From a virus (taxonomy: Duplodnaviria; Heunggongvirae; Uroviricota; Caudoviricetes): a stretch of 34,836 bases of DNA. A program made the position numbers and the translations under genes. This document shows, piece by piece, positions 582-34,542 of this stretch (within the stretch, counting starts at the first letter, position 1; each line of letters begins with the position of its first letter). The notes beneath the pieces are model-generated. The model was not told the DNA's origin and did no database searches. It was given only the letters and a program-made list of their open reading frames with translations. The stretch spans positions 1-34,836 of IMG/VR virus record IMGVR_UViG_2687453454_000001. One strand, written 5' to 3'.

Positions 582-1589
582 CTATTTTGCCTCTTGGCGG
601 TTATCGAACGGGTTAAGTGCTACCGCAGCATCAAGGTGGTTTGGGGCAAAATGCGCATACCTCATTGTCATCATGATCGTGCTGTGCCCGAGAATTTGCT
701 GTAACACCAAAATATTCCCACCTCGCATCATGAAGTGACTCGCGAATGTATGACGTAGTACATGGGTACGCTGTCCTTTGGGCAGCTCTATACCTGCGCG
801 TGCGAGAGCTGCCTTAAAAGCCTCGTATGCGGGTGAGAAGAGGGCACCACGCTTTTTAGGGAGCATCGCCTGTAGTTGTTGTGAAATTGGCACTGTGCGG
901 TTCTTCTTGCTTTTGGTTTGCGTAAACGTCAGACGACCAGGAAGGATTTGAGATTGCTTTAAGTCTTGAGCCTCGCTCCATCGTGCACCGGTCGCCAGAC
1001 AAATCCGTACGATAATCCCTAAATCTTTATTTGCGGACTGGTCGCATGCTGCAAGCAATCGGTCAATTTCTTCCTCATACAGAAAAGCCAGCTCCTGATC
1101 ACCTTCTTTGAACTGCCTGATTCCAGACAGCGGGTTATCTCCTTCCCATTCCCCCAGCCGCTTCATTTCCGAGAATACTGCATGCAGATAAGACTGCTCG
1201 CGGTTTACTGTCGCTTCACTCAGCTTCTTCTTGCCTTTCTGATTCCATTCACCACTCAAACGCCGTTCCCGGTATACAGCGAAAGTGTTTTTATCAAAGT
1301 GAGAAGCCAATGGATCACCAAGACGTTCGCATATGGCCAGTAATTTCACCTTTCTTTCATCACCAGATGAGAGCGTTTTGCCATGCATCTCGTACCAGCG
1401 TTCAACGAATGCCGAAAGAGTCACAGCGCTGTCGTTTACCGGCTGGTTTGCAGCGTTATTCATTAAACGGCGCTCATGGGAGAGCGCTTCACCTTTGGTA
1501 GCAAATTGCTTACGTATGCGTTTCCCATCACGCCCGTAAGGGAAACACTGACAAAGCCATTTACCGGAGGGTAGTTTTCGGACGGTCAA
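582..1589 (-). CDS. int: P2-family tyrosine integrase
   Basis: 335-aa ORF with catalytic-type motifs ATGARWSEA, HVLRHTFASH and MRYAHF; close resemblance by eye to P2 Int; adjacent to a tRNA gene. Confidence 0.9.
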   Translation of the reverse strand: MTVRKLPSGKWLCQCFPYGRDGKRIRKQFATKGEALSHERRLMNNAANQPVNDSAVTLSAFVERWYEMHGKTLSSGDERKVKLLAICERLGDPLASHFDKNTFAVYRERRLSGEWNQKGKKKLSEATVNREQSYLHAVFSEMKRLGEWEGDNPLSGIRQFKEGDQELAFLYEEEIDRLLAACDQSANKDLGIIVRICLATGARWSEAQDLKQSQILPGRLTFTQTKSKKNRTVPISQQLQAMLPKKRGALFSPAYEAFKAALARAGIELPKGQRTHVLRHTFASHFMMRGGNILVLQQILGHSTIMMTMRYAHFAPNHLDAAVALNPFDNRQEAK

Positions 1590-2464
1590 TTACTCACCTC
1601 TGCATCATCATCAGATCCTGCATACGCGAGTGAAATGAACATTTCCGCAGCGTTATCAAGATGTGCATAGGTTGATGTAAATTCGATATCTCGACACCTA
1701 CAGACGAATGGGCGCGTTTGATTTTCTGGTTGGAAGGATAAACTTACAACTGGAGTTTTGCGTGGTTTACCATTTTTGAAAAAGTTACAGACATCCAAAC
1801 GATTGCAAAGGCCTGCATCATCTTGATAAGTAGCAACATGCCACCCCATACCATGAAGTGTATCGGCAAATGCTAAATGCACTTCTTCGATATTTTTATA
1901 TAAGCCAACGGAGTATTGTTTTTTCTTACTCTCATTACGTTTTCTTGGCAGGGATGGGAGCCTTGCTACACCAGGTATTTCAATTTTTTCCAAGCTGAAT
2001 GTTTTTACCGGGTGAGTCGGAGATGATAGGTCCGCTGCTCGCAGCGTAAAGTTATCAAGCAATGTCAGAGGAAGGATATCTCTTGCTGCTCCGGATCGTT
2101 CACCTCCGTGATAAATGATTGATAAATTATCTTTGGTATCAATTGACGACCAGATCAGGTCCAGAAGAGGGTGTTCATCATGGATTGTAAATGTTGGTGT
2201 ATTGCCCTTTTGACCTTCTATATTTTGCGCATCCGACAAGGGGGATAGGTTTAGAAATTGCTCGGTCGACAGCACCTCTGAACCTTGCTGAGATGCCTTT
2301 TTTATTTTGCTCGGACCAGCATTTTCACCGCAACAGAGATAGTTAAGATCCTTGGTGACATCACTTCTAACGACATATCCACGAGCTTTAGCAATTTCAA
2401 TAAGCTCATTTTTGTCTTTTTTCCCAAAACCTGTAAAACAAATAGTCCTCATATAAAACCCCAC
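1586..2464 (-). CDS. BRCT-domain protein with WYL-like middle domain and C-terminal extension (cargo gene; function unknown)
   Basis: N-terminus TICFTGFGKKDKNELIEIAKARGYVVRSDVTKDLNYLCCGENAGPSKIKKASQQG has the BRCT pattern; the middle LSIIYHGGERSGAARDILPLTLLDNFTLRAADL...KTFSLEKIEI resembles a WYL domain. Probable ATG start at 2452 (ORF track start at 2464 is GTG). Its stop overlaps the int start by 4 nt. Local GC is lower than the phage core. Confidence 0.7.
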   Translation of the reverse strand: MGFYMRTICFTGFGKKDKNELIEIAKARGYVVRSDVTKDLNYLCCGENAGPSKIKKASQQGSEVLSTEQFLNLSPLSDAQNIEGQKGNTPTFTIHDEHPLLDLIWSSIDTKDNLSIIYHGGERSGAARDILPLTLLDNFTLRAADLSSPTHPVKTFSLEKIEIPGVARLPSLPRKRNESKKKQYSVGLYKNIEEVHLAFADTLHGMGWHVATYQDDAGLCNRLDVCNFFKNGKPRKTPVVSLSFQPENQTRPFVCRCRDIEFTSTYAHLDNAAEMFISLAYAGSDDDAEVSN

Positions 2465-2468
2465 GAAG

Positions 2469-3098
2469 TCAGAAAAATAATGAACCTAACAGGAAACCAA
2501 TTAAGAAGATGACAATGAATTCTTTCGCGTGGGATCGCAGCAATGTAGTGACATCCAATGGAGAGTGATTCTCTCTCGGGGGAGAAGGCGGAATATCTTG
2601 TGTTTGCTGGTCCAGCCACGATAAACACATTTGAAGCTGGTTGCGTGTTAGGTCATTCAGTCGACCAGTTCCGAAGTTAACATGGCAATAACGAATCAGT
2701 TTCTGCCTCAATTCGCTGTCTTCACTATTTCGAAGGAGAAGGCTAACAAGTGCTTTACTTGCATCTTTATCCTTAGCGCGTTCGAGCATGGACTGCAAAA
2801 AGCTAACTGCAGTCTGATATTGGTTGACGGTCATTTCTTCGATACTCGAAACGCCAATCTCTGCATGCAGCTTTTGCCAGATCTCATATGCTTCATTGCC
2901 GTAGGAATCAGAAACAAGTGCTACTAGGGCATTAAGTTCTTTTCTCTGCGCCCTAACCAAAGGACGCTCATCGTGAGTATCTGAGGGAATCGCAATGTTG
3001 ATGGTGTGACGGCCATCAAATTTATCGATCTGAACGCGGTTTTCTGTGAAGTCGCGTCCAGCGGTGCGGTTTTGATCTCCAGAGGAATTCACTTCCAT
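2469..3098 (-). CDS. hypothetical protein with C-terminal transmembrane anchor (cargo gene)
   Basis: 209-aa ORF; C-terminus FIVIFLIGFLLGSLFF is a hydrophobic helix; GGGAAG RBS-like sequence about 5 nt upstream of the ATG; starts 13 bp after the repressor stop and ends 4 bp before the BRCT gene. Confidence 0.6.
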   Translation of the reverse strand: MEVNSSGDQNRTAGRDFTENRVQIDKFDGRHTINIAIPSDTHDERPLVRAQRKELNALVALVSDSYGNEAYEIWQKLHAEIGVSSIEEMTVNQYQTAVSFLQSMLERAKDKDASKALVSLLLRNSEDSELRQKLIRYCHVNFGTGRLNDLTRNQLQMCLSWLDQQTQDIPPSPPRENHSPLDVTTLLRSHAKEFIVIFLIGFLLGSLFF

Positions 3099-3791: not shown

Positions 3792-3811
3792 TACTAGCGT
3801 GTGAGGTAGAA

Positions 3812-4015
3812 ATGACGGGCGTGACCATCAATATGAATGTTGCTGCTCCTTATGTATCTCTCAAGGAGTATTCCAGACTAACCGGCATTCCATTCGACAC
3901 ATGCAGGTTAATGGTTCGCGACGGAAGGATAATTATCAGACCTAAAGAGCTATCAGGGGGCAAGGTAGAAGTAAACATGATAGCCATGCTCAAGGATGCA
4001 ATAGCCAATAGCTAA
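3812..4015 (+). CDS. Cox-like small DNA-binding protein (putative excisionase / switch regulator)
   Basis: 67 aa; GAGGT RBS-like sequence at 3803-3807; PYVSLKEYSRLTGIPFDTCRLMVRDGRI resembles the P2 Cox HTH region as I recall it. Confidence 0.5.
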   Translation: MTGVTINMNVAAPYVSLKEYSRLTGIPFDTCRLMVRDGRIIIRPKELSGGKVEVNMIAMLKDAIANS

Positions 4016-4588: not shown

Positions 4589-4756
4589 ATGACAATTCAA
4601 AAAAATGACCGCGCTCACCTGCTTGGGTTGTTACGTATCAAATTAAACCTTATGAAGAAAGAAAAGCTTTCCACTAATGAAATTTACCGCAGCCTGGAAG
4701 ATTGGATCGGCAACAGAGAACAGGTAGCAGTAAACAAGGAGCGTAAAAATGGTTAA
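4589..4756 (+). CDS. small hypothetical protein (55 aa), not in the ORF track
   Basis: ATG at 4589 preceded by GAGG; uninterrupted frame to a TAA that overlaps the methylase start. Confidence 0.35.
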   Translation: MTIQKNDRAHLLGLLRIKLNLMKKEKLSTNEIYRSLEDWIGNREQVAVNKERKNG

Positions 4757-5711
4757 CTCCCCTCTTATTTGGGTGGGCGGCAAGTCTCGCGCTATGTCGC
4801 ATGTGCTTGATGCTTTGCCCCACGGTGAATGCCTGGTTGAGCCTTTCGTGGGAAGCGGTAGCGTCTTCCTGAACACTGATTACAAAACCTATGTTCTCTG
4901 CGATAGCAATGCAGCGCTGATTAATTTCTTTTCAATGGTTAAACGTAATACCGAGGAGCTTTTAACTGCTTCCGCAAAGATATTCGAAAAGGGTAATAAT
5001 GAGATTATATACTATGAATATCGCGACGAATTTAATGTAATCAATCGTGAGTTTAAATATGACCGCCGAAAATATAATGATGAAACGTTAGTTAGATATG
5101 CGGCGCTGTTCCTTTATTTAAACCGCCATTGCTATAACGGTGTATATCGCGTTAATTTGAAAAATGAATTCAACGTTCCTTTTGGTTTTCGTAAGAAGCC
5201 AATTTTCCCTGTGGCTGAGATTCAGCATTTTGCTAAAAGAGCGTGGGAAAAGGGGGCTATGTTCCTGCATGGTGATTTCAGAGCAACAATCCCGCTGGCG
5301 ATTGGTCATTCGGGCTCCGTGGTTTATTGCGATCCGCCATACCTGCCAGCTAGCGAAACTGCGAATTTTACGGCTTACGGCAAGCCATTTACCGATGCAG
5401 ATCACCGCACCTTGGTTGCGATGCTTTCACGCCTCTACAACAACGCAAAAATACCATCTGTCATATCTGGCAGTGACACACCAGAGACGCACCAAATTTA
5501 TTACCCGTTCACCCTAAAAGCTTTCGACGTTCGGCGCTCAGTGGGGGCCAAAACTCGCAACCTTGCTGGCGAGGTTATAGGTACTCTGTGTGTCTGCGAT
5601 TGCTGTGGGAGTGTGGGCGGTGGCTGTCCTGATTGTGGGGCGGTGATGGGCGATGCGACTTATTCAGAAATGGTCGCTTCTGGTGCTTTTGAAGATCAGG
5701 AGGTGTTCTGA
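4749..5711 (+). CDS. DNA N6-adenine methyltransferase (Dam family) with Cys-rich C-terminal tail
   Basis: N-terminal IWVGGKS, SAM-binding EPFVGSGSVFLN and catalytic YCDPPY motifs; C-terminal CVCDCCGSVGGGCPDCG cluster. Confidence 0.85.
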   Translation: MVNSPLIWVGGKSRAMSHVLDALPHGECLVEPFVGSGSVFLNTDYKTYVLCDSNAALINFFSMVKRNTEELLTASAKIFEKGNNEIIYYEYRDEFNVINREFKYDRRKYNDETLVRYAALFLYLNRHCYNGVYRVNLKNEFNVPFGFRKKPIFPVAEIQHFAKRAWEKGAMFLHGDFRATIPLAIGHSGSVVYCDPPYLPASETANFTAYGKPFTDADHRTLVAMLSRLYNNAKIPSVISGSDTPETHQIYYPFTLKAFDVRRSVGAKTRNLAGEVIGTLCVCDCCGSVGGGCPDCGAVMGDATYSEMVASGAFEDQEVF

Positions 5712-8335: not shown

Positions 8336-8419
8336 GTTTTGAATCAGGTCAGTGTTGTCGGAGCGGTGACGGATGTAAGTGCGATTCGGCTATTCAATGG
8401 AGTTAGAAAGGATAAATAG

Positions 8420-8446
8420 AAATGCCCCGTTGCCGGGGCATTTTTA
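8420..8446. terminator. bidirectional intrinsic terminator
   Basis: Stem ATGCCCCG / CGGGGCAT with loop TTGC, flanked by A-rich sequence on one side and T-rich on the other; sits between convergent gene A and the HTH gene. Confidence 0.7.
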
Positions 8447-8450
8447 CTTA

Positions 8451-8828
8451 CTACTCGAGCGTTAGTTGCTCGGGACTGCATTTGTACAGTGTAGCTAGCC
8501 GTTCAAGGTTGTCTTTGCGAGGACGCTCAGACTTTTCGAACTCGGACACTGTAGATTGCTTAATTCCCAGCGCTTCAGCGACTTGTTTTTGCGTCAAGCC
8601 TCTGTAAACACGCCATGCAGCCTGCATGGTGCAACCCTTCTCAGAAAGAATGTTGATAACTTCGTTTGGGTATCGAACGTTATCAGATGTGCCGGTTTCG
8701 TTTTGAACAGGCTCGTATAACTCTGCGATATCACTATCACGGGTCAGTTTTTCGAACAGTTCAATCGGCACGACAGCAGAAATTCTTTTCCCTCTACTGT
8801 CTGTGATGAATTGAATGTTAGCCATCAC
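8451..8828 (-). CDS. HTH (XRE-type) protein, putative antitoxin
   Basis: 125 aa; C-terminal HTH LTQKQVAEALGIKQSTVSEFEKSER; lies downstream of the RelE/ParE-like gene on the same strand. Confidence 0.6.
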   Translation of the reverse strand: MMANIQFITDSRGKRISAVVPIELFEKLTRDSDIAELYEPVQNETGTSDNVRYPNEVINILSEKGCTMQAAWRVYRGLTQKQVAEALGIKQSTVSEFEKSERPRKDNLERLATLYKCSPEQLTLE

Positions 8829-9011
8829 TCTTTAGTCCTACGTAGATTGTTAAAAAACAAAGATTTTTAACTTATGCGTCTTCGACTGCGTAGACCACTT
8901 GATATAATTTTTGGCATCTAAATACTCCTAATTGGTTGATTGAAATTAAAAATTTTTTTTCTTCAACATCTACCGTTTGAGTTGACGGGGCGGGGTTTCC
9001 CCCGCCACTCA

Positions 9012-9290
9012 TCAATATGTCGTGGACGTTCGGCGCAAGATGCGCTGAATCTCGATCACTACAGGGGCATTGTTGCTTAAGGCATACAACACTCTGTAAT
9101 TCCCAACCCTCAGTCGATACTTACCATCACTATCAGTGAGCTTTTTAACATCAAGCCCCTTCAGGTCAGGATATGACTGCATCGCGTTAACCTTCTCGCG
9201 AACAGCTTTTTGATCTTTTGATGGTAGCGAGCGTAAGTCCTTAACGGCCTTACCAGTCCATTGAATGTTTGTCGTCATGACGAACCTCAA
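9012..9290 (-). CDS. RelE/ParE-superfamily toxin-like protein
   Basis: 92 aa; GKYRLRVGNYRVLYALSNNAPVVIEIQRILRR matches the RelE/ParE core pattern. Confidence 0.65.
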   Translation of the reverse strand: MRFVMTTNIQWTGKAVKDLRSLPSKDQKAVREKVNAMQSYPDLKGLDVKKLTDSDGKYRLRVGNYRVLYALSNNAPVVIEIQRILRRTSTTY

Positions 9291-9332
9291 AGGTAAATTG
9301 TTAAAGAACGCATCCCGAAACTCGGAATAACT

Positions 9333-9404
9333 ACAATATAGGGGTTAACCCCTATATTGTCAAGAAAGCCCTATATTTCCATGCGCTGATATAGGCAATA
9401 TAGT
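9333..9404. promoter_or_regulatory. operator region with perfect 28-bp palindrome and repeated half-sites
   Basis: ACAATATAGGGGTTAACCCCTATATTGT at 9333-9360, plus CCCTATATTT and ATATAGGCAATATAG copies downstream; lies between the divergent toxin gene and the 128-aa gene. Confidence 0.55.
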
Positions 9405-9411
9405 TCGCGAA

Positions 9412-9798
9412 GTGAGTGATACGGTGAATTTTGATGGGCTTTCACGGCAGGAAAAGCGAGAACTGGCACAGCGGTTTAGTGACGTTGTTCGAAGCAAACT
9501 TAAAACACGTCCACCGGAACGAGAAGAAGGGGCTGGACTATCGGTGAAGGAGCTTATAACTAAAGAACTACTTGAGCTATGTGGGATTGATGCCTGTGTC
9601 GGGATGATAAAATCAATAGTACCGGGAACGCATATTGGCTATATCGATCTGATTTTTGAGATCGAAGATGGACGTCTAGCGTTCAAAATTTGCTCAGAAA
9701 CAAACTTCAATGTTGCTACTAAACAAAAGATGGCGAACATTTTAGATAGAGATAGAATACTAAAAAGGTTGAAGCAAGCTTTGTTTACAAATGGATAG
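9412..9798 (+). CDS. hypothetical protein (128 aa), first gene of the AT-rich cargo pair
   Basis: ORF with GTG start at 9412 (alternative GTG at 9424); GC falls along the gene; ends 20 bp before the 944-aa ORF. Confidence 0.5.
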   Translation: MSDTVNFDGLSRQEKRELAQRFSDVVRSKLKTRPPEREEGAGLSVKELITKELLELCGIDACVGMIKSIVPGTHIGYIDLIFEIEDGRLAFKICSETNFNVATKQKMANILDRDRILKRLKQALFTNG

Positions 9799-9818
9799 GG
9801 CAAAAAAGATGCCTCGTT

Positions 9819-12653
9819 ATGTGTGTCGTTATTTACCACAAATTGGGATTGGTTATGAGCATTATGAAAATAGAAGTAAAAGGTAAGCCAAAAGGAGCAG
9901 TCATTTATATCAATGTCAAGAAAACCATAGCTTTTTATTTGACGATTTCAATTTTAATTCTGCTTGGGATGTATTTATCACGTTTTTGTTCTGTGCCATA
10001 TAAATATTTATTGATTAGCCCATCTTTTTATAATAATCCATATCTTAATTGGATAACTGGTGTTTGGGGTAGTTTTTTAGGCATGCACGGTACTATAGCT
10101 GCTTTGTCTATAACTTTTATGGGAATGTTTGTCGATCAGGTTTCAAAGACATCTGAACATGGTTTTGAGCATTTATCGAAAGTCTTATTGCTAAGAGAGT
10201 ATGATTTTTTAGGATTTAGTGTTGAATCAGTGTGTAGTCTATTATGTGGCGTTTTTTTACTTCTCATTGGTAGTGGCTTGATTGGATATTTAATTTCATC
10301 TTTACTTTCTTTATTTTTTATCACTAAATATGGCATTATGTATTATAGACTTTACCATTTAACAGAAGAACCCGGAGTTATTAATGGGATTTTATTAGAT
10401 TCTATCAGGACAACAGGCATCAAGTATAATGAGATTAACAAACAACGACAGATTCTTGCTAACGAGTTTTCTCAAGTAATATCGGGAGGTGATTACTACA
10501 GTGATGATCAAAGTGCCTTCTATTGGAATGATGATGCGATAACGATAAATATTTTTCCTGATGACACTGATGTGGTTATTTCTGGATACAATCCAAACAT
10601 ATTTAATCAGCTTTCGGTAAAGATTAAAGAATTTAATTTGAACCATCCGCCTATCTTGCTTTTCTCTTTATCATTCTTATCACCCATATCAAATTCCTCA
10701 ATGAAAATCATTCCATCTAATAAATCTGATTTGACAGAGGAGCATATTTCATCAATTGAATCAATTTTGAGGAAAGGGCTGATATTTAGTTCTGTTCCTT
10801 ATGTTTTTAATGAGTTTAAACAATTTGAAGAAGCTCTTGTAGTAAACGTCAGAAACAGTTTGCTGAATGGTGATGAGTGGACGTTAGATTTTGGAGTGCG
10901 TATTTTTTATGAACTAACTTCAAATGATAACTATATCTACACTCTAAAGAATATAGATTTGTCAATTACGTCCTCTAATACTAAAGATGTGGTGAAAACA
11001 TCTTTGTTTGCAAGTTATTTTGAAAAAATGATACGTGAGGCTTATAATCAGAGTAATCTTGAAAAGGCTGCTAATATAATGCGGTCGTTAATAGACCTAG
11101 CGAGATATATTTATGGTAAGAATAACTTTGTCGATTTTTATAAAAGGATTTTTAGACAATTTGACCATAGGGTAAAGTATCGTGCAGAAGAATCAAATTA
11201 TGTTTTTTTAGATCTGTATACATCCACTGTGCTGCACAACCTAGTATATAAGAATTATGCGGCTTTCAAAGTTGATACTGAGTTTGTGACGCGTAGATTG
11301 CAGTATCTAGATCTTAGCAATAAAACAGAACATGATTCATTGAATGAAATGCAACGTAAGATATTACGTTTATTATTTGAAGTTATATCCTTGCTAATTA
11401 TGCGAATAGAGCATGTGAAGGCGAAGGGTGAAGAACGCAAAGAGGAACTCAACGAATTAATCATTTCATTGAAGTCTTGGGTAAATGCTAAATTTTTGCA
11501 GGAATTATATTACAAAAAAGAGCTTTACGATGTGTTGTTTACTATACCTCAAGAGTTTTCGGTATTCGGTGCAGAAACTAAAATTCGAGAAATACCAGAT
11601 GGTGAAGCGACATGGAGATCAGTTTCGAACGATACTTATAAGATGATCGCATTCGTTCTTACGCAAAGCTCTTTCAACAATAATCAATTGAATCTTTTAT
11701 TTGTTAGAGATGCATTTCAATTTAAAAATGCTACGTCAATATTAACCCGCGAATTAAGTTCTATAATAGATTACATAGAGGGTGAATCTTTCTCTAAATT
11801 ATTTAAATTGATAACTGAAAAGGATTTGGTCGAAGATAGTAATAAAAAAACAGTAGTTGAGAAGTTGGAGTCGATTATTTCCTCGCAAAATTCTTTAGTG
11901 CTGCGCAGTGTGATCGAATCAGAATTAGAGCCTTCATTGGTTGATAAATATAGTAACGAGATCATACATTCTGTGGAGAAGCTATTTGAGCTAATTTTGC
12001 CATTGGAAGCAATTCCTTTAGAGATTGGATTCAATGGGATCGAATCACATCTATTAATTAATAAAAGAGAGGTGCTCCCCCCAATTGATGGTGTTTCTTA
12101 TGGAATGAACATTCATAACCATAGTCAGTGGTTAATATATGAATGGATCAGGAGTGTATTAAACAGTATTGATATAAATGCTGTGGAGGTTATCACTATT
12201 GATGACCCACAAGATTTGCCAACCGAAAAATTAGTTACCATAGAATATCAAGTTGAAGATAGAGTTAACACTTTTAGGCATTCTCGAGGTTTAAAAATTA
12301 ATGATAAGGAAGGCCATTTGAATTTGAATGGTTCTGGCTTGTATTATTTGGATTTATTAAATAACTTTAATTTAAAAAAATCAAAAGAAATACTAACGGT
12401 TAACATAGAAAAGATATTTGAAGGAAATATTGAAATGGTTAAAGGACGATATGATTTTGATAATGATAATCCTTATCTATATTCAATTTTAAATGTCGTT
12501 TTTAACATTGTTGCCATACCAAATATGATATGTAAACTTTATTTTCTATCGGAAGATAAATGTCTGTTAATCAATCAAAAACAAGAAAGAGAGATGGAGC
12601 AATTAATTAAAGGGAACAGAACGGAGAATCCTGATAACAGTAATGTATCTTAA
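9819..12653 (+). CDS. large AT-rich membrane-anchored protein of unknown function (944 aa)
   Basis: Uninterrupted 2.8-kb ORF in very AT-rich DNA; N-terminal hydrophobic helices (TIAFYLTISILILLGMYL, WITGVWGSFLGMHGTIAALSITFMGMFV, VCSLLCGVFLLLIGSGLIGYLISSLLSLFFI) then about 750 aa of soluble sequence; alternative starts at 9855 and 9864. Confidence 0.7.
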   Translation: MCVVIYHKLGLVMSIMKIEVKGKPKGAVIYINVKKTIAFYLTISILILLGMYLSRFCSVPYKYLLISPSFYNNPYLNWITGVWGSFLGMHGTIAALSITFMGMFVDQVSKTSEHGFEHLSKVLLLREYDFLGFSVESVCSLLCGVFLLLIGSGLIGYLISSLLSLFFITKYGIMYYRLYHLTEEPGVINGILLDSIRTTGIKYNEINKQRQILANEFSQVISGGDYYSDDQSAFYWNDDAITINIFPDDTDVVISGYNPNIFNQLSVKIKEFNLNHPPILLFSLSFLSPISNSSMKIIPSNKSDLTEEHISSIESILRKGLIFSSVPYVFNEFKQFEEALVVNVRNSLLNGDEWTLDFGVRIFYELTSNDNYIYTLKNIDLSITSSNTKDVVKTSLFASYFEKMIREAYNQSNLEKAANIMRSLIDLARYIYGKNNFVDFYKRIFRQFDHRVKYRAEESNYVFLDLYTSTVLHNLVYKNYAAFKVDTEFVTRRLQYLDLSNKTEHDSLNEMQRKILRLLFEVISLLIMRIEHVKAKGEERKEELNELIISLKSWVNAKFLQELYYKKELYDVLFTIPQEFSVFGAETKIREIPDGEATWRSVSNDTYKMIAFVLTQSSFNNNQLNLLFVRDAFQFKNATSILTRELSSIIDYIEGESFSKLFKLITEKDLVEDSNKKTVVEKLESIISSQNSLVLRSVIESELEPSLVDKYSNEIIHSVEKLFELILPLEAIPLEIGFNGIESHLLINKREVLPPIDGVSYGMNIHNHSQWLIYEWIRSVLNSIDINAVEVITIDDPQDLPTEKLVTIEYQVEDRVNTFRHSRGLKINDKEGHLNLNGSGLYYLDLLNNFNLKKSKEILTVNIEKIFEGNIEMVKGRYDFDNDNPYLYSILNVVFNIVAIPNMICKLYFLSEDKCLLINQKQEREMEQLIKGNRTENPDNSNVS

Positions 12654-12788
12654 AAAGAATAAGTGATTGATACCTTACTATCAATGCGCAAAATTTACAT
12701 GGAATTTTGTCAAAGTAGATCACGTGAGGCGGGGAAAATTGAAAATGATCTAAAGGTAATCGCTAGTCAAAAGATTGCACTAGGCGGC

Positions 12789-12887
12789 TGCACAATAGTG
12801 CACAAGTTTGCACAATTTTTGAAACAACGTTTTTTCCATGCCGCCCCAGCGCTGGCGGGGCCTGGGCGGACTGCACAAAGTGCACAA
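12789..12887. repeat. five copies of TGCACAA in the packaging region
   Basis: Copies at 12789, 12799, 12809 (exactly 10 bp apart) and 12872, 12881, immediately upstream of the cos-like sequence. Confidence 0.6.
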
Positions 12888-12909
12888 AAAGAGGCCGGTT
12901 TAGCGCGCA

Positions 12910-12930
12910 GGCGAGGCGGGGGAGCAAGCG
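12910..12930. other. cos site (P2-type cohesive-end sequence)
   Basis: GGCGAGGCGGGGGAGCAAGCG resembles the P2 19-nt cohesive end GGCGAGGCGGGGAAAGCAC as I recall it; lies next to the portal and terminase genes. Confidence 0.6.
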
Positions 12931-13161
12931 CGCGCAAAGGGGGGCAGGTAGGGGGGCATATCCTTCGCCATTCGCCGTCTGTCGGGTGCTCATGTTGATG
13001 GTTGAGCGAAGCGGCAGCGCGAGAGAAGTCGCGCCAGAAGCCCGTTGGCTGCGTCTGGTAGGGGGGGGGTTTATTTGTGTTTCGTGAGTGGCCGAGATGG
13101 CCGGAAATGATGGTGCTGCGGGTGGTACCGCACCGCCAGAAATGACGATGCGGCAAGGAGA

Positions 13162-14214
13162 TCACTTCGTGGGTTCAAGCAATGCGTAAGGGTTGAAGCG
13201 AATCACCTCCTCACCCAGCCAGTCGTTAACATGCTTCATGGCTTCCATGTAGGGTGTCAGCTCGTTGACGGCGAACACGCGGGCCGCTTTCTCAATATCA
13301 CCGAATGAACCGTTCCCTTCCGGAATGGCGCCCATCAGTTGCGGCGGTACCCGGTGCGCTGCCAGCATGTCATCGCGGGTGGAAGACTTCACCCCCACAA
13401 ACTCATCCTTAGCCGATATCTGGCTGAATGGCAGTATTTGCACGGAGTCTTTGCCGCCGTTAGGTGCGTGCAGAAGGATGTTCTTAAACGCACCGCCGCG
13501 CCGGGTATCCGTCAGCGTCTTTTTGAGCTTATCAAGGCTCTCCTGGTCGGCCATCGCGCTGTTAACGTAGACGATGCAGCCAGCGTGTGAGCCGTTGTCG
13601 TAGTAAAGCTTTCTGAACTTGTCAGCAGAATGGGCCAGATTTGCAGACAGCAGGCCAGCGAAATACTCAGGCATGCCGTATATTTCCTGGTGAATATCCG
13701 GGCTGAGAACGTGGCATACCGAGCCCGTTGAAAACATGTGATCCTGTAGCCCGGCCTGAATAAACCAGTAAGTGTCCAGGTCAGAACCACGGCGTGTGTA
13801 TTTCGCCAGCGAGTGACGAAAGCCAAAGGAACCACCAAGCCGGTTTTTTCGCATCTCAAGATAACCATTCCCGAAGACAAACCAGTCCAGCGCGAAGGCG
13901 GAGAACACCTGGCGGGAAAGAAGTTTGTGCGGGACAAAGCATCCGGCAAGGACGTTGCGCTTGAAATAAAGCGCCGACTGGTGCCAGCTCGCATAGCCAA
14001 ACTGACGGGCGAGGCCATACCAGTCAATGGGGGTTTCGTAGTATCGCCCGTTGTCTGCGCAATACATGTTATCAAGCAGGTCGCTGGCACCACTCACCGG
14101 CCATGGACCGTCGAAGGTGAATGAGTTCAGCTCCGGTGACGCTTTCAGTGAGGCGGCGAGATCTGCCTGCTCCCTGGCATACTTCCTGCCGCGTGTGGGT
14201 CTTTGTTTGCTCAA
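13162..14214 (-). CDS. Q: portal protein (gpQ-like)
   Basis: 350 aa; position next to cos and the large terminase, and P2 Q-like sequence. Confidence 0.88.
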   Translation of the reverse strand: MSKQRPTRGRKYAREQADLAASLKASPELNSFTFDGPWPVSGASDLLDNMYCADNGRYYETPIDWYGLARQFGYASWHQSALYFKRNVLAGCFVPHKLLSRQVFSAFALDWFVFGNGYLEMRKNRLGGSFGFRHSLAKYTRRGSDLDTYWFIQAGLQDHMFSTGSVCHVLSPDIHQEIYGMPEYFAGLLSANLAHSADKFRKLYYDNGSHAGCIVYVNSAMADQESLDKLKKTLTDTRRGGAFKNILLHAPNGGKDSVQILPFSQISAKDEFVGVKSSTRDDMLAAHRVPPQLMGAIPEGNGSFGDIEKAARVFAVNELTPYMEAMKHVNDWLGEEVIRFNPYALLEPTK

Positions 14215-14216
14215 GG

Positions 14217-15938
14217 TTAATACTCCGTAACTGTCATACTGCTGCCGCCTTCTTGTCCCAGCGGTTCGTTAATGGTGGCAAGCATCGTCGCCCATGCGAG
14301 ATCGCCATGACTGACGCCGCGAGAGCGGTCCGTGTCGTAAGTGACAACACCGCCAGGGGTAACGATCTTGCGGACAGAGTTGAATGCACCAACCAGGTCA
14401 AGCTCACCACGATCAAACTCCCAGCGCCCGCCACGAATCAGCTGTTGCATCTTCAGCACGAGCATTCGTTTGCTGGACGGTGAGAACTGGTAACAAACCG
14501 CTGCCGGGAAATGCTTTTTAACCAGCTGATAAACCGCTTCACCAATACCGGTGCCATCGATCCCAATGTGCTGCACGTTGTACCGGGTGAGCATGCCGAT
14601 AATTAGATTGGCCTGCTCTTCGAACTCCATCCCTCGTATGCGTAGTGTCTCAATCGTGCGGAACTTGCCGCCGGGCACCATCGGCACAGCGTTAACGGAT
14701 ATGGCTCCACTGTCCCCCTTGCCGCTGGCGCCGTTCGGGTCATAGCCAATCCAGACGGGACGATCAGCCATGGGGCGGGCCGCATATGGCCGCCAGTCGG
14801 GCCAGTCGTCATAACCATCAGCGCCGCATGCCAGTAGTCTGTTATAGTCAAAGGCGCTTTCACCGCTTTTGATGAACTGGCATCCGTACAGGTTGTCGTA
14901 TTCCTCCGGGCTGTTCTCTTCCCGGATTTCGTCGATATCAGTCAGATCCCATCCATGGTCGATAGCATCCTGCAACGTGACAATCTGCCTCCAGATCTTG
15001 TCCGGGCACATCAGGCCGCTGTTAAGCGTTTTCCAGGATGTATCAAATTCAATGCGCTTGCCATGGCTGCGACCTTTGTTAAATGCTTCACCTGTCCAGA
15101 ATGGATAAGCCTCATGGCTTTCTGCTGAAGGGGTGGAGAAATAGGTACGCGTTAGACCTTTTAGCGTTGCCATGGCGCCCGCGACTTTTTTCAGGTTGGC
15201 AAACTGGCCTACCCAAAAGAATTCGTCGAAATACAGGTTGCCCGTGTATGACTGAGCGGTAGCCGCTGACGTGCCAAGAAAATGCAGCTCGGCGCCGTTG
15301 AACAGCTGGATCATGTCGCCGCCCTTAAGCTCTACATCTACTTCTTCAGCGGCCGAGCGAATGAAACTTCGAAACTGGTACGCCTGGCGGCGGCTTGCCG
15401 ATAAAAAGATTTGGTTGCGCTGATGCTTATATTTCACATCCTCAGACAGGGCGCGCACCAGAGCTTCACGTGCGAAATACCACGTCGCGCCAACCTGACG
15501 GCTTTTCAGGATCATGCGGTTACGCCAGTGGTGATTGTCATACCACCCTTTCTGGTGCCAGTGCAGAGAGCCGAGAATGTTCTCCCGCAGCGCGGCAATC
15601 TGCGACTCTGAGAAATAGTTTTGCTTTTTGCGGATCTTTTTCTTCGGCTGGGTGGCTGCTGTGCCGTTATCCAGCTTTTTCAACTGACGGGTGAGCAGGT
15701 CAATCTCTTTGAAATCACCGCCGGTCTTTTTGTCTTTGCCAGTGAGCTGAATTAGCCTGGCATCAATGGATGTTGTCACGCGCTGGATCGGCGGTGTGGC
15801 GTCCCATTCATCTCGCTTTTTCCATGAGTAAACCGTGTTCTGGTTGATCCCCATCAGGCGTGCGATCTCTGCTGGCGGGTAGCCCTGCCAGTAAAGCTGT
15901 CGTGCACGCTGCATGATGAATGCTTCTTCAATCGCCAT
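14217..15938 (-). CDS. P: terminase large (ATPase) subunit (gpP-like)
   Basis: 573 aa; N-terminal QGYPPAEIARLMGINQNTVYSWKK HTH-like region typical of P2 gpP; adjacent to portal. Confidence 0.88.
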   Translation of the reverse strand: MAIEEAFIMQRARQLYWQGYPPAEIARLMGINQNTVYSWKKRDEWDATPPIQRVTTSIDARLIQLTGKDKKTGGDFKEIDLLTRQLKKLDNGTAATQPKKKIRKKQNYFSESQIAALRENILGSLHWHQKGWYDNHHWRNRMILKSRQVGATWYFAREALVRALSEDVKYKHQRNQIFLSASRRQAYQFRSFIRSAAEEVDVELKGGDMIQLFNGAELHFLGTSAATAQSYTGNLYFDEFFWVGQFANLKKVAGAMATLKGLTRTYFSTPSAESHEAYPFWTGEAFNKGRSHGKRIEFDTSWKTLNSGLMCPDKIWRQIVTLQDAIDHGWDLTDIDEIREENSPEEYDNLYGCQFIKSGESAFDYNRLLACGADGYDDWPDWRPYAARPMADRPVWIGYDPNGASGKGDSGAISVNAVPMVPGGKFRTIETLRIRGMEFEEQANLIIGMLTRYNVQHIGIDGTGIGEAVYQLVKKHFPAAVCYQFSPSSKRMLVLKMQQLIRGGRWEFDRGELDLVGAFNSVRKIVTPGGVVTYDTDRSRGVSHGDLAWATMLATINEPLGQEGGSSMTVTEY

Positions 15939-16004
15939 TAATCCTCCTCGCTTCCTGCCGGGGAGATTAACCCGCGCGCGCGTACCCTTGCGCTCGCTTT
16001 AGGT

Positions 16005-16022
16005 TGTGGTGCTCCGCTCACA
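16005..16022. promoter_or_regulatory. Ogr/Delta-type late-promoter activator site (TGT-N12-ACA dyad)
   Basis: TGTGGTGCTCCGCTCACA in the divergent P/O intergenic region, about 55 bp upstream of the plausible O transcript start. Confidence 0.55.
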
Positions 16023-16098
16023 ACAACAACGCGTTGAGGGGGGATGCGTCCCCCTGCCATCATCTCCGGGAACTCAGAAAACAAGCGAGTAAACGAAC

Positions 16099-16932
16099 AT
16101 GGCAGGCACAGCAAAACCACGTAAGAAGTTTCGCGTGGCCGTCTCCGGAAATACCGTTGACGGGCGCGAAATTCAACCGCAGCACCTTCGCGATGCAGCA
16201 GCAAATTACAACCCTGAGGTGTATGGCGCGCGGGTCAACATTGAGCACTATCTCTCTATGTTCCCGAATAGCGATTTTGGGGCGATGGGGGATGTGGTAG
16301 CCCTCAGCACTGAAGACATCACCGAAGGTGCACTGGCGGGGCGCACCGCGCTTTATGCTGAAATCGAACCATCCGAGCGCATGGTGCAGATGACCGACAA
16401 AGGGCAAAAAGTCTATTCCAGTATTGAGCTGCATCCGCAGTTTGCCCTCAACGGCAAAGCCTATGTTGTCGGGCTGGCAATGACCGATACCCCGGCGAGC
16501 CTGGGCACTGAGCGTCTTAAATTTGCCTCACAGCAGCGTGCATCGGTGATGGCCTTCAATAACCAGCAGGGTGAGGCGCCGATGTTCACCGAAGCGCTTG
16601 AAGCAGAGGTGATCGAGCTGACCGCCCAGCGCAGCGATGAAGGTGCCAAGTGGTTTAATCGCGTGATGAGCATTATTGGCAAAGGTCAGAAAACGGACGA
16701 TCAGCGCTTCAGTCAGATGCATCAGGTCGTTGAGGCCGTGGCGCAATCGCAATCCGAGCAAATTGATCGCTTCAGTGCCGCAGAGCAGGAGCGCCAGGAG
16801 GATAAGGCCGCTATCCAGAAGCTGACCACTGAGCTTGCGGAGCTGCGCCAGAAGCTGGGGAGCACTGAAGCTTCCTTCAGTCAGCGACCACCTGCGAACG
16901 GCGGCGCCAACGCGCAGCTGGCTGATTACTGA
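16099..16932 (+). CDS. O: capsid scaffolding protein (gpO-like)
   Basis: 277 aa; P2 O-like sequence and position before the major capsid gene. Confidence 0.85.
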   Translation: MAGTAKPRKKFRVAVSGNTVDGREIQPQHLRDAAANYNPEVYGARVNIEHYLSMFPNSDFGAMGDVVALSTEDITEGALAGRTALYAEIEPSERMVQMTDKGQKVYSSIELHPQFALNGKAYVVGLAMTDTPASLGTERLKFASQQRASVMAFNNQQGEAPMFTEALEAEVIELTAQRSDEGAKWFNRVMSIIGKGQKTDDQRFSQMHQVVEAVAQSQSEQIDRFSAAEQERQEDKAAIQKLTTELAELRQKLGSTEASFSQRPPANGGANAQLADY

Positions 16933-16955
16933 TATCCACTACGAGAGCAGAGAAC

Positions 16956-26419: not shown

Positions 26420-26702
26420 TTAACATCACCTCCCAAATCTGCGTTTCACTCTCTTCTGCATCTGAACCGTAGAAGCCAATTAATTCTACGATGATCTCTC
26501 CTGACTCCTTTCTGGCATTCAGTACAGGATTGGGGGTTAACACAGATACAAAATCGACCGCGATATCGCCATCATTCAGGATGCTAAAATCGAATGAATC
26601 GGCAACATCATCAACTTCAATCGTTAATACATCACCTTTTGCCGACACTTTCATGACGTAATCAGAACGCTGCGGGGTAAAGATTGCTTTCATCAGAACC
26701 AT
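26412..26702 (-). CDS. alternative tail fibre assembly protein, N-terminal-part ORF
   Basis: 96 aa; ends 8 nt after the next ORF's ATG; sits between H' and the Tfa C-terminal-domain ORF. Confidence 0.5.
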   Translation of the reverse strand: MVLMKAIFTPQRSDYVMKVSAKGDVLTIEVDDVADSFDFSILNDGDIAVDFVSVLTPNPVLNARKESGEIIVELIGFYGSDAEESETQIWEVMLNG

Positions 26703-27100
26703 CTCCCAACTGCTGTATATCCAAGATATGCCGCTGCATTTTGCACATTGCTAATCAGCGCCAGTGACGTCCCAGTCAGTGAACTACCGCGAACGGAAGG
26801 CCACGATGATGTACCACCTGTTGATAGTGGAGCAGAAGGTGCTACGGCTGGCCTGGTGCCAACGAAAGTTGCAGGAAAAGTGAACACAGATTCAGTGGAA
26901 AAATATAGGTTTGTCGTTCCACCACTAGGGTTACTTGTTATGGATTCGACCGACTTGGTAAAACAACAGATTAATGTTCCGTCGGCGAATTTTGTGTACT
27001 CACCATTTGAGTTAGATCCTCTCTCAATAATTGCCCCGGTCGGAACTCCCCCTGACTGAGATACTGTTCCTACGACATCAGCTTTAGCAGCCGTTCGCAA
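26693..27100 (-). CDS. alternative tail fibre C-terminal (receptor-binding) segment H', promoterless
   Basis: Reading frame runs from the right crossover site; Gly/Ser/Thr-rich, fibre-tip-like sequence; would fuse to the constant H N-terminus after inversion. Confidence 0.6.
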   Translation of the reverse strand: MRTAAKADVVGTVSQSGGVPTGAIIERGSNSNGEYTKFADGTLICCFTKSVESITSNPSGGTTNLYFSTESVFTFPATFVGTRPAVAPSAPLSTGGTSSWPSVRGSSLTGTSLALISNVQNAAAYLGYTAVGRWF

Positions 27101-27117
27101 ACCAACGTTTTCCGGAA
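27092..27117. repeat. right crossover site of the invertible segment
   Basis: CGTTCGCAAACC-AA-CGTTTTCCGGAA; its reverse complement resembles the left site with the matching central dinucleotide. Confidence 0.5.
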
Positions 27118-27223
27118 GACATGGTTACTTCTGACGGTGCGGTACCTAACCTGCAGTACAGCCAGAAATGACGATGCTCGATACAATGCGAGGGACTATG
27201 GCATCTAAATAAAGGGGATTTTT

Positions 27224-27793
27224 ATGCTGATCGGCTATGTTAGGGTGTCAACAAATGACCAGAACACCGCGCTGCAAAGAAATGCGCTGGAAAGCGCAGG
27301 ATGTGAACAAATATTTGAAGACAAAATAAGCGGCACAAAAGCGGAAAGGCCGGGGCTTAAGCGTTTATTACGAACCTTATCGAAGGGGGATACGCTGGTT
27401 GTCTGGAAGCTTGATCGTCTCGGGCGGAGCATGCGCCACTTGGTGACCATGATTGAAGAGCTACGCAATCGCGGTGTTAACTTCCGCAGCCTGACAGACA
27501 GCATTGATACCTCAACACCTATGGGGCGTTTTTTCTTTCACGTCATGGGGGCGCTGGCAGAAATGGAGAGAGAGTTAATCGTTGAGCGCACCCGCGCCGG
27601 TTTGGTTGCGGCTCGTGCAGAAGGAAGGATAGGAGGGAGGCGACCAAAACTGACAGAGCAGCAATGGGAACAGGCGGGAAGACTGATCGCCGCAGGGGAG
27701 AAACGACAGCGGGTGGCTATTATTTTTGATGTCGGAATATCGACACTTTATAAAAAGTTCCCTTCAACAAGAAGGGAACATGAAGGGGCTTAA
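27224..27793 (+). CDS. serine DNA invertase (Hin/Gin/Pin/Cin family)
   Basis: N-terminus MLIGYVRVSTNDQ with the catalytic serine context; GRRPKL and C-terminal HTH typical of this family. Confidence 0.92.
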   Translation: MLIGYVRVSTNDQNTALQRNALESAGCEQIFEDKISGTKAERPGLKRLLRTLSKGDTLVVWKLDRLGRSMRHLVTMIEELRNRGVNFRSLTDSIDTSTPMGRFFFHVMGALAEMERELIVERTRAGLVAARAEGRIGGRRPKLTEQQWEQAGRLIAAGEKRQRVAIIFDVGISTLYKKFPSTRREHEGA

Positions 27794-32054: not shown

Positions 32055-33236
32055 TTATGCACCTCCCAGCGATGCAAAGGCTGGTTCGTAATACTGATCG
32101 GTAAACGTCTGGATCAGCGTTAAATCTTCCAGCGGTGGTACGGGGCTGTAGTTGTAGCGAACAACGGCTTTACCCTGGCGAATACCGGTGGTCGGGTTAT
32201 CGACAATATCAAACCAGCATGCAGCACCAATCAGTTTGCCAGCAGTAACCAGCGCCTGAAGTTTGGCATTGATCCCACTCACGACGTCTTTGACGTTAGC
32301 CGGGGTAAGCGGTTTGTCCACGGTGGTGAATTGTGCTTCCGCAATGCTGTCCGCCAGAATTTGGGCAGTACGGGTAAATACCTCGAAAATATACTCTTCG
32401 GTGTCGGTGGTGCGGTTCCCCCAGAACCGGAAGCCGTCGCGTTTGATCAGCGTGGTAATCTCGTTGGCGTTCAGCTCGTTAGCGTCGGAGTCCTCCGCCT
32501 GTAACGCCCAGAAAACGTCTTTAGAGATACCTAGGACGTTTTTAACCGCAACGTTAGAAAGTGACTTGTGCCAGCCCTGCTCATTGTCAATCAGTGCCCG
32601 CAGGCCAAGCGCATAGGCAACAGCCGGGAATTCTTCATTAACGCCGGTCTGCGGGTTGTAGGCGATGAAGTTAGGCCAAATCATCATCCCTTCACGTTCG
32701 GCAAACTGCTCGCGGTAGGTTTTCGCTTCGGCAATAGTCTCGCAGCTATCGCAGTAACTGTAAGAGAATGCACGCAGCTGCTTCGCAATTACGCGTAGCT
32801 GTGCGGTTACTTCCTGCGTGTCGTACATCGGAATGCCGAGGATGCGAGGGCGGTAACCGGTTTTCTGCTCTGCGGTCAGCAGGGCAAACATCCCGGTATA
32901 GCTTCCGTCAGCCTGTGTGCCACCGATAATGAGCTGGGATTGCGTTTTGGCATTTTCTCCTTCCTTTGCTTCAGCGACACGAACAACAATTACACGCGTG
33001 CTGACCTGGTCGGAAATAGCCTTGAGAGATTTATACAGTGAGCCTGTTTTGCCCGCCTTACCCAGCACGCTAATCACGCGAGTGATCAGGACTGGCGTAT
33101 CAAGTGGAAAGGTGAGGGGATCGGCATCATCGGCCACCGCAACCAGACCAATGACCGTTGAATCAATGTCATTGATCGCGGTCTGGAGGTCGGTGTTTTC
33201 TTTGGTGCGCGCCCCGTGGAAAAAGTTGTCGGTCAT
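32055..33236 (-). CDS. FI: contractile tail sheath protein (gpFI-like)
   Basis: 393 aa; P2 FI-like sequence and order. Confidence 0.9.
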   Translation of the reverse strand: MTDNFFHGARTKENTDLQTAINDIDSTVIGLVAVADDADPLTFPLDTPVLITRVISVLGKAGKTGSLYKSLKAISDQVSTRVIVVRVAEAKEGENAKTQSQLIIGGTQADGSYTGMFALLTAEQKTGYRPRILGIPMYDTQEVTAQLRVIAKQLRAFSYSYCDSCETIAEAKTYREQFAEREGMMIWPNFIAYNPQTGVNEEFPAVAYALGLRALIDNEQGWHKSLSNVAVKNVLGISKDVFWALQAEDSDANELNANEITTLIKRDGFRFWGNRTTDTEEYIFEVFTRTAQILADSIAEAQFTTVDKPLTPANVKDVVSGINAKLQALVTAGKLIGAACWFDIVDNPTTGIRQGKAVVRYNYSPVPPLEDLTLIQTFTDQYYEPAFASLGGA

Positions 33237-33311
33237 ACTCTACCGCCATCATGTTTAGTGAGTTCATGGTGATATTCGCTGAATTCCGGGCGGCAGACAC
33301 GTTGCGATGGA

Positions 33312-33329
33312 TGTCGCAGAAAGGCGACA
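33312..33329. promoter_or_regulatory. Ogr/Delta-type late-promoter activator site (TGT-N12-ACA)
   Basis: TGTCGC-AGAAAG-GCGACA perfect dyad between the divergent FI and D genes. Confidence 0.55.
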
Positions 33330-33387
33330 ACAAAAGGCTGTTTGTCCTATCGCGCGCGCATGGAAATATTTGCGGGAGGAGAAAGCG

Positions 33388-34542
33388 ATGGCACTGACAA
33401 CTGAGGCAATAGAGAGCGCAAAAAGCCTGCTGAATGCGGGTGCTGAGAAATTCAAAAATTATCCTGGCGACTTGTCACGTGTGCCAGCGTTTAACGTAAC
33501 GCTTGGCGGCAGAGCGCTGATCATGCTGGATGAGAAACTGATCTCGTTAGAATTAACAGATAACAGGGGCTTTAATGCTGATGAACTGACTATCACTGTT
33601 GATGACAGCCAGGGAGATATTGAGTTACCGCCACGTGGCGCTGAGTTATCGGTAGCGATAGGTTGGCAGGGAGAAAAACTGGTACACAAAGGGATTTTCA
33701 TCGTGGATGAAATTGCGCACTCAGGGCCGCCGGACCGTATCGAGATCACGGCCAGAAGTGCAGATTTCCGCGATGAATTTAACGTTAAGCGGGAGGTGTC
33801 GTGGCATGATGTTACAGTAGAGCGCATCGTCTCTGCTATAGCTCACAGGTACAAGTTAAAACCTCTCATCTCAGAGCAACTGATGTCCGCCGAGATCGAT
33901 CATGCAGATCAGACGCAGGAAAGCGATATGTCGTTTCTGACGCGCATGGCGGAAATGCTGGGCGCTATTGCAACTGTGAAAAATGGTTACCTTCTCTTCA
34001 TCCTGCCTGGTGGCGGTGTCAGCGCAAACGGCAGAGCGTTGCCGGAATTTTCCATCACGCGCAGCAGCGGAGATCGCCATTCTTTCCGGATTGCAGATCG
34101 CGACGCATATACTGGCGTGCAGGCGTACTGGCTTGATATGGATTTCGGGAAAAAGAAAAAGGTTACTGTTAAAAAGCGGAAGAAAACCGCAGACAAAAAG
34201 CCGCGCAGCAGCAGCCGGGAAGGGGACTATATTGCCGGTGAAGATGGTAACGTTTTTGTACTCCGTACGACGTACAGCAGTGAGATAGCCGCACAACGTG
34301 CAGCAGCTGCAAAATGGCAACAACTCCAGCGCGGAGCTGCTGAGTTCTCTTTAACCCTGGCTTACGGGCGCGCGGATCTGTATCCGGAGATGCACGGAAC
34401 GGTAACGGAGTTCAAAGACGTCATTGACGGCCAGGATTGGATAATTGCGAAGGCAAGCCACACTGTTGACGATAGTGGGTTTAAAACGCGGCTGGAGTTG
34501 GAAGCAAAAATACCTGAATGGATTGCAGAAACCGAATCATAG
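33388..34542 (+). CDS. D: tail protein D (late control gene D family)
   Basis: About 384 aa from the ATG at 33388 after GGGAGGAG (ORF track begins at 33307); P2 D-like. Confidence 0.85.
   Translation: MALTTEAIESAKSLLNAGAEKFKNYPGDLSRVPAFNVTLGGRALIMLDEKLISLELTDNRGFNADELTITVDDSQGDIELPPRGAELSVAIGWQGEKLVHKGIFIVDEIAHSGPPDRIEITARSADFRDEFNVKREVSWHDVTVERIVSAIAHRYKLKPLISEQLMSAEIDHADQTQESDMSFLTRMAEMLGAIATVKNGYLLFILPGGGVSANGRALPEFSITRSSGDRHSFRIADRDAYTGVQAYWLDMDFGKKKKVTVKKRKKTADKKPRSSSREGDYIAGEDGNVFVLRTTYSSEIAAQRAAAAKWQQLQRGAAEFSLTLAYGRADLYPEMHGTVTEFKDVIDGQDWIIAKASHTVDDSGFKTRLELEAKIPEWIAETES

Follow-up and report, generated by a model that had tools for sequence, protein, structure and literature searches.

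Does the short inverted repeat between the divergent late genes P and O act as a common control site for two head operons, and is the activator that would bind it encoded nearby? The locus lies in a stretch of viral DNA of 34,836 nucleotides (the window), which is a P2-like prophage beside a tRNA-Gly/Cys/Leu cluster. The original prediction proposed that positions 16005-16022 form the TGT-N12-ACA element of an Ogr-type late promoter, placed in a divergent P/O intergenic region at a suitable distance from both start codons and answering to an ogr gene at the window end. The sequence TGTGGTGCTCCGCTCACA is present there on the plus strand and matches TGT-N12-ACA exactly, the consensus of P2 late promoters (PMC3931495). 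It is embedded in a perfect dyad with 6-bp arms, GTTGTG-N8-CACAAC, that spans 16003-16024. The surrounding genes are as proposed: Pfam identifies a gpP-type terminase on the minus strand and gpO on the plus strand on either side of the dyad, and an Ogr_Delta zinc-finger open reading frame closes the window. The site centre is 75.5 bp from the terminase start codon and 85.5 bp from the scaffold start codon, near the values for P2 (78.5 and 95.5 bp) and 186 (77.5 and 88.5 bp), so the spacing is indeed suitable. The features discussed below are collected in Table 1.

Table 1. Coordinates of the predicted late-control elements and of the genes around them.
Feature	Position	Strand	Remarks
Flagged TGT-N12-ACA dyad	16005-16022	none	Predicted Ogr-homologue site common to the P and O promoters
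Extended site, GTTGTG GTGCTCCG CTCACAACAA	16003-16026		Centre 16013.5
Alternating CG tract	15974-15985		Between dyad and P promoter -10; GCGCGCG invariant in relatives
Predicted P promoter -10, TAATCT	15969 to 15964	-	45-50 bp from dyad centre
Predicted P start	near 15956-15958	-	Placed from the -10-like hexamer
Predicted O promoter extended -10, TG-C-CATCAT	16055-16063	+	Hexamer 45-50 bp from dyad centre
Predicted O start	near 16069-16071	+	Placed from the -10-like hexamer
Second exact dyad, arms TGTCGC and GCGACA around AGAAAG, then ACAAAA	33312-33329		Centre 33320.5; in the FI/D gap; predicted to serve both the F and the D promoter
Predicted F promoter -10, GAATAT	33272-33277	-	44-49 bp from dyad centre; A and T positions invariant
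CGCGCGC tract, invariant	33353-33359 (tract 33351-33359)		5' of D promoter -10
Predicted D promoter extended -10, TG-G-AAATAT	33361-33369	+	41-49 bp from dyad centre
gpQ portal	13162-14214	-	Pfam
gpP-type large terminase (Terminase_6N/6C/5)	14217-15938	-	Pfam
Leftward late operon P, Q	13162-15938	-	
gpO scaffold protease	16099-16932	+	Pfam
gpN major capsid, P2 family	16956-18005	+	Pfam
Rightward late operon, start (gpO, gpN)	16099-18005	+	
Terminator-like hairpin ending tail operon FI to U	27757-27779		
Tail sheath FI	32055-33236	-	Pfam; first gene of leftward tail operon FI to U
gpD tail gene	33388-34542 (33307 if first in-frame ATG)	+	Pfam
Ogr/Delta zinc-finger activator gene, 82 aa	34588-34836	+	Pfam Ogr_Delta, 4.8e-19

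The bare motif has little power to discriminate. The window holds seven TGT-N12-ACA matches, compared with 7.05 +/- 2.65 in dinucleotide shuffles, and there is no enrichment; occurring at chance frequency, the motif carries no statistical weight alone, and the argument must rest on its context. The same count is what one would expect if the dyad were a chance palindrome, or a DNA or RNA hairpin, with no regulatory role, and a perfect 6-N8-6 dyad of any sequence likewise turns up in about 4% of shuffles of the P/O gap. The position of the motif argues against that explanation. When the 160-bp P/O gap is dinucleotide-shuffled, TGT-N12-ACA appears anywhere in 1.2% of the shuffles and within 5 bp of its observed position in 0.13%; the corresponding figures for the F/D gap, where a second match is found, are 2.1% and 0.12%. 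A hairpin formed by the flagged dyad would be weak (-4.8 kcal/mol, z = -1.4), and the dyad lies 5' of both predicted transcription starts.

Conservation of the P/O gap was analyzed in an alignment of 11 sequences: the window, Klebsiella phage 3LV2017, a Klebsiella prophage record, KSP20, phiT5282H, two Reipivirus and four Xuanwuvirus/P88-type phages. The closest sequenced relative is 3LV2017 (Reginaelenavirus), with about 77% identity over 69% of the late region. At the dyad, the two T's of the left arm (T-S-T, where S is G or C) and the right arm ACAACAA are invariant in all 11. The 12-bp spacer varies freely; the window and 3LV2017 differ at 5 of its 12 bases in a region that is about 89% identical. 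Arms that are kept across genera around a drifting spacer are the signature of a protein-binding site with two half-sites, and they are not expected of a chance palindrome. The conserved core of the lineage can be written GG-T[G/C]T[G/C]-N9/10-ACAACAA. In the Novemvirus, Reipivirus and Xuanwuvirus phages, which are more distant, the left arm is TCT instead of TGT, indicating that the textbook TGT consensus is not strictly kept in this lineage.

The fourth base of the arms changes symmetrically, TGTG...CACA in one phage and TGTC...GACA in another. This swap is seen in two independent comparisons, between the window and KSP20 at P/O and between the window and 3LV2017 at F/D. None of the eight TGT-type sites has mixed arms, a count that represents two or three independent events only. 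The pattern is suggestive, and hints at a strict two-fold recognition rule. The record of Klebsiella phage ST16-OXA48phi5.4 places a 39-aa coding sequence labelled 'DEAD/DEAH box helicase' within the promoter-bearing P/O gap; this is almost certainly a miscalled gene that overlies the late promoter.

The same alignment bears on whether the dyad could be the site of a host regulator, for example a CRP-like TGTGN-N8-TCACA element. The window reads TGTGG-N8-TCACA, which does resemble a pair of CRP half-sites. The CRP consensus is TGTGA-N6-TCACA, and the window spacer is 8 bp rather than the canonical 6. Furthermore, the relatives read TGTCG...CGACA or TCTGG...TTACA, losing the G and C that are critical for CRP, while they keep ACAACAA, which is absent from CRP sites. 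The same element is also present at a second late divergent region, F/D. A host regulator is thus a very improbable occupant of the site.

On both sides of the dyad we observe -10-like hexamers at 44-50 bp from the centre, and the predicted starts consequently fall 55-58 bp from the centre, which puts the dyad at about -55 to -57 relative to each. [quoted passage not shown] When the F and D promoters are counted too, each of the four window hexamers starts 44-45 bp from its dyad centre. The same holds in P2, where the pP (TAGCCT), pO (GAAACT) and pF (GAAAAT) hexamers each occupy 44-49 bp from the site centre. Both P/O hexamers are conserved: across the 11 sequences, the TG, the -11 A and the -7 T of the extended O promoter -10 are invariant, and so is AGATTA, the P promoter -10 on the opposite strand, including its -11 A and -7 T.

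This geometry can be read in another way, in which the Ogr homologue binds the dyad but serves one promoter only, or works at another spacing; the O promoter -10 could, for example, be GGAACT (16069-16074), placing the dyad near -67. The window sequence CATCAT...GGGAACT resembles P2 CATCGT...GGGAAACT, in which the second element is the P2 -10, and on the side of the F promoter GAACTCA is found again at an equal offset. GGAACT, however, is kept in the closest relatives only, and since only TG-n-CATCAT, including the -11 A and the -7 T, stays unchanged across the 11 sequences, GGAACT is disfavoured as the O promoter -10. The common offset of 44-50 bp at all four window promoters, and the annotation of one shared site in each of the P2 and 186 records, also argue against this alternative, which we regard as unlikely. 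We therefore retain the arrangement of one site between two back-to-back promoters.

A scan for sigma-70-type -35/-10 promoters returned none in 15900-16130 and none in 33200-33420. Given weak -10-like hexamers and no good -35 element, the P and O promoters should be nearly silent before the activator is made. There is a partial -35-like sequence, TTGAGG (4/6), 18 bp 5' of the O promoter -10; with 8/12 positions matched overall it is below the scan threshold, but its presence means that the O promoter may not depend fully on the activator. Alternating CG tracts, (CG)4-5 in length, occur once at each locus, 31-41 bp out from the dyad centre and only on the side of the P promoter or the D promoter, and the GCGCGCG tract at P/O is invariant in the 11 sequences. 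They may serve as GC-rich spacers that hold basal promoter activity low. A GC hairpin, GGGGGG-ATGC-GTCCCCC, at 16039-16055 between the dyad and the O promoter -10 was considered as a further element and rejected: it is a variable stretch, unconserved in the relatives, and its z score against shuffles is -1.2.

The second exact dyad, TGTCGCAGAAAGGCGACA, lies at 33312-33329 between the tail genes FI and D. In the window the tail operon FI to U runs in the opposite direction to D-ogr, giving a second pair of divergent late units. FI starts at ATG 33236 on the minus strand. The start of D is likely ATG 33388, which has the Shine-Dalgarno sequence GGGAGGAG and is the start annotated in relatives, rather than 33307; the FI/D gap is then 33237-33387, or 151 bp. 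The F/D layout repeats the P/O layout, with the ACAACAA arm invariant, and the D promoter TG, -11 A and -7 T are invariant in five relatives. Transcription is predicted to start near 33265 (minus strand) and 33376 (plus strand). The layout as a whole was confirmed in 3LV2017, the Klebsiella record CP052639, KSP20 and phiT5282H only. The two sites are also polar in the same sense. The promoter that the invariant ACAACAA arm faces is the one whose -10 is of the extended TGn type (O and D), and within each pair one promoter (P or D) has the invariant alternating-CG tract beside it.

To place these two sites against the rest of the window, weight matrices were used. With a matrix derived from the relatives only, two places stand out in the window: 16002-16028, at 28.2 bits, and 33309-33335, at 21.1 bits; the shuffle maxima are 10.3 +/- 2.0, the largest being 14.8. 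When the matrix is built from the relatives' F/D sites alone, a locus that is not homologous to P/O, the flagged P/O site still ranks first in the whole window, scoring 21.9 bits compared with 12.8 +/- 1.9 in shuffles. That a matrix learned at another locus gives the flagged site the top score is difficult to reconcile with a palindrome of no function. Position, conservation and recurrence together exclude pure chance, and we consider a palindrome or hairpin without a regulatory role extremely unlikely.

The other exact TGT-N12-ACA matches, at 9071, 17584, 22354, 29753 and 32003, lie inside genes or in AT-rich cargo, and their scores are at chance level. An exact TTGT-N12-ACAA occurs in the AT-rich cargo region at 9070-9089; the lineage matrix gives it no support, and it is probably a chance match. 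Scanning the window with TGT-N11/12/13-ACA, TGTSG-N8-CSACA and the motif matrix revealed no third, pV-type site above the shuffle maxima. No gap separates the genes S and V, which meet at 22158.

The candidate activator gene is intact. It encodes Cys4, Cys7, Cys30 and Cys35 in the arrangement CX2CX22CX4C, and the protein shares 49% identity with P2 Ogr over 51 residues (the zinc-finger domain) and 51% with 186 B over 49 residues. Its identity to the homologues in relatives is 85% in 3LV2017, 69% in Reipivirus and 48% in Xuanwuvirus; genera with a TCT left arm also have activators that diverge further. Position 42 is Leu, where P2 Ogr has Tyr42, a residue implicated in contact with the alpha subunit; the details of the alpha contact may therefore differ.

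Based on the geometry, the left arm, the -10 hexamers, the conservation, the recurrence at F/D and the intact activator gene, we suggest that 16005-16022 is, as the original prediction had it, an Ogr-type late-promoter element. We put the probability at roughly 0.85 that it is an operator-like site for the phage's own Ogr-family activator and that this one site serves two back-to-back late promoters. The transcription starts, binding, activation and the contact with the alpha-subunit C-terminal domain are all inferred. In the proposed mechanism, the activator would bind about 55-56 bp 5' of each start and recruit host RNA polymerase, by analogy with P2 Ogr through the C-terminal domain of the alpha subunit. 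The leftward promoter would then read the terminase and portal genes (P, Q), and the rightward promoter the genes from O onward (scaffold, capsid, and the morphogenesis and lysis genes behind them). Downstream of gpN, the plus strand carries other head, lysis, tail and baseplate genes. The F/D site, being of the same design, would drive the tail operon (FI to U) and the D-ogr unit. Because that unit includes ogr, the activator gene would be under positive feedback from a late promoter.

A stronger version of this model is that the whole late regulon is run from the two bidirectional Ogr sites at P/O and F/D only, without a separate baseplate (pV) promoter. We advance this tentatively, at odds slightly short of even, for a lineage comprising the Reginaelenavirus-like phages and KSP20 and probably phiT5282H. 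If it is true, ogr lies directly behind a late promoter and would form an autocatalytic switch. The analysis as a whole offers a confident and testable late-control map for an uncharacterised group of P2-like prophages, to which the window belongs together with related phages of Klebsiella, Serratia and Enterobacter. It contains two bidirectional sites, four predicted promoters with predicted starts and the ogr feedback loop, and could be used in phage annotation, in predicting cross-activation by P4-like satellites and in engineering.

The prophage around these sites has several other features. An Rfam search of the window returned three tRNAs only, tRNA-Gly(GCC), tRNA-Cys(GCA) and tRNA-Leu(TAA) at 152-453, directly upstream of the prophage integrase gene (582-1589, minus strand); integration probably took place at the tRNA-Leu end. 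The window ends exactly at the ogr stop codon, which places the other attachment site outside it. The integrase gene adjoins a gene for a BRCT-domain protein (1586-2464, minus strand), and the early region includes a gene for a Dam-type (D12 class) N6-adenine methyltransferase (4749-5711, plus strand). Nothing in the window points to a satellite.

Between replication gene A and the portal gene is a low-GC island (8336-13161; 32-37% compared with about 55% for the phage) that contains an open reading frame of 944 aa at 9819-12653 on the plus strand. It has no Pfam, PADLOC or NCBIfam match; its only matches are to PHROGs 10073 and 18005, both of unknown function. In P2, the cargo genes old and tin occupy the equivalent position between A and the portal gene, and the 944-aa frame is possibly an uncharacterised defence or cargo gene. 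A serine invertase gene (Resolvase and HTH_7 domains; 27224-27793, plus strand) adjoins tail-fibre genes and reversed open reading frames (26412-27100, minus strand), which suggests that 26141-27793 is an invertible tail-fibre segment that sets host range; the inverted repeats there are weak ones only.

How does the arrangement compare with known systems? It is already known from P2 and 186, and the mechanism is textbook biology that leaves understanding unchanged. The novelty is modest and lies in the lineage layout: two bidirectional sites, the polarity of the sites, the CG tracts and the TGT versus TCT arms. Aligning the P2 intergenic region to the window with MAFFT gave nothing informative, and geometry and annotated sites were compared instead. 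The P2 record (NC_001895) annotates one 'activator binding site; pO, pP promoters' at 3057-3087, with starts at 3016 (minus strand) and 3127 (plus strand); its TGT-N12-CCA is centred at 3071.5, 55.5 bp from both. As in P2, the window has a single partial dyad between divergent P and O without a sigma-70 consensus, and ogr is located downstream of D. The window, P2 pO/pP, P2 pF and both 186 sites all have the left arm GTTGTG. Where P2 has TGT-N12-CCA, the window matches TGT-N12-ACA exactly and has CACAACAA as its right arm. The gap between the genes measures 160 bp, compared with 173 bp in P2, and the window activator has a longer C-terminal tail than P2 Ogr. The two phages also differ in the tail region. 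In P2, FI to D-ogr form a co-linear operon and pV and pF have sites of their own, whereas in the window the inverted FI-to-U operon and D-ogr have the second bidirectional site in common, and the window scans found no pV-type site. Feedback on ogr in P2 takes place by read-through from pF into ogr.

Phage 186 offers a further parallel for sharing a site. Its record (NC_001317) annotates one site for the B protein, an Ogr homologue, at 3798-3817, described as 'activation of pV and p12 promoters'; thus one B site, with the left half GTTGTG-N8, serves both divergent head promoters (p12/pV), as proposed for the window. The right arm is TGTCCA or CATCCA in 186 but CACAACAA in the window. There is a further B site for pJ, and the 186 tail operon is co-linear as in P2, unlike that of the window. 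Among closer phages, 3LV2017, KSP20 (Serratia), phiT5282H (Enterobacter), Reipivirus and Xuanwuvirus (P88) have homologous P/O -10 elements, CG tract, dyad position and ACAACAA arm, and none of their records annotates the site. The window activator is also in the same zinc-finger family (Pfam Ogr_Delta) as Serratia NucC and P4 Delta, to which it is likened by family only. NucC is reported to act on TGT-N12-ACA promoters. Delta is reported to act on promoters of the same TGT-N12-ACA type (PMC3931495), the motif from which the present analysis began.
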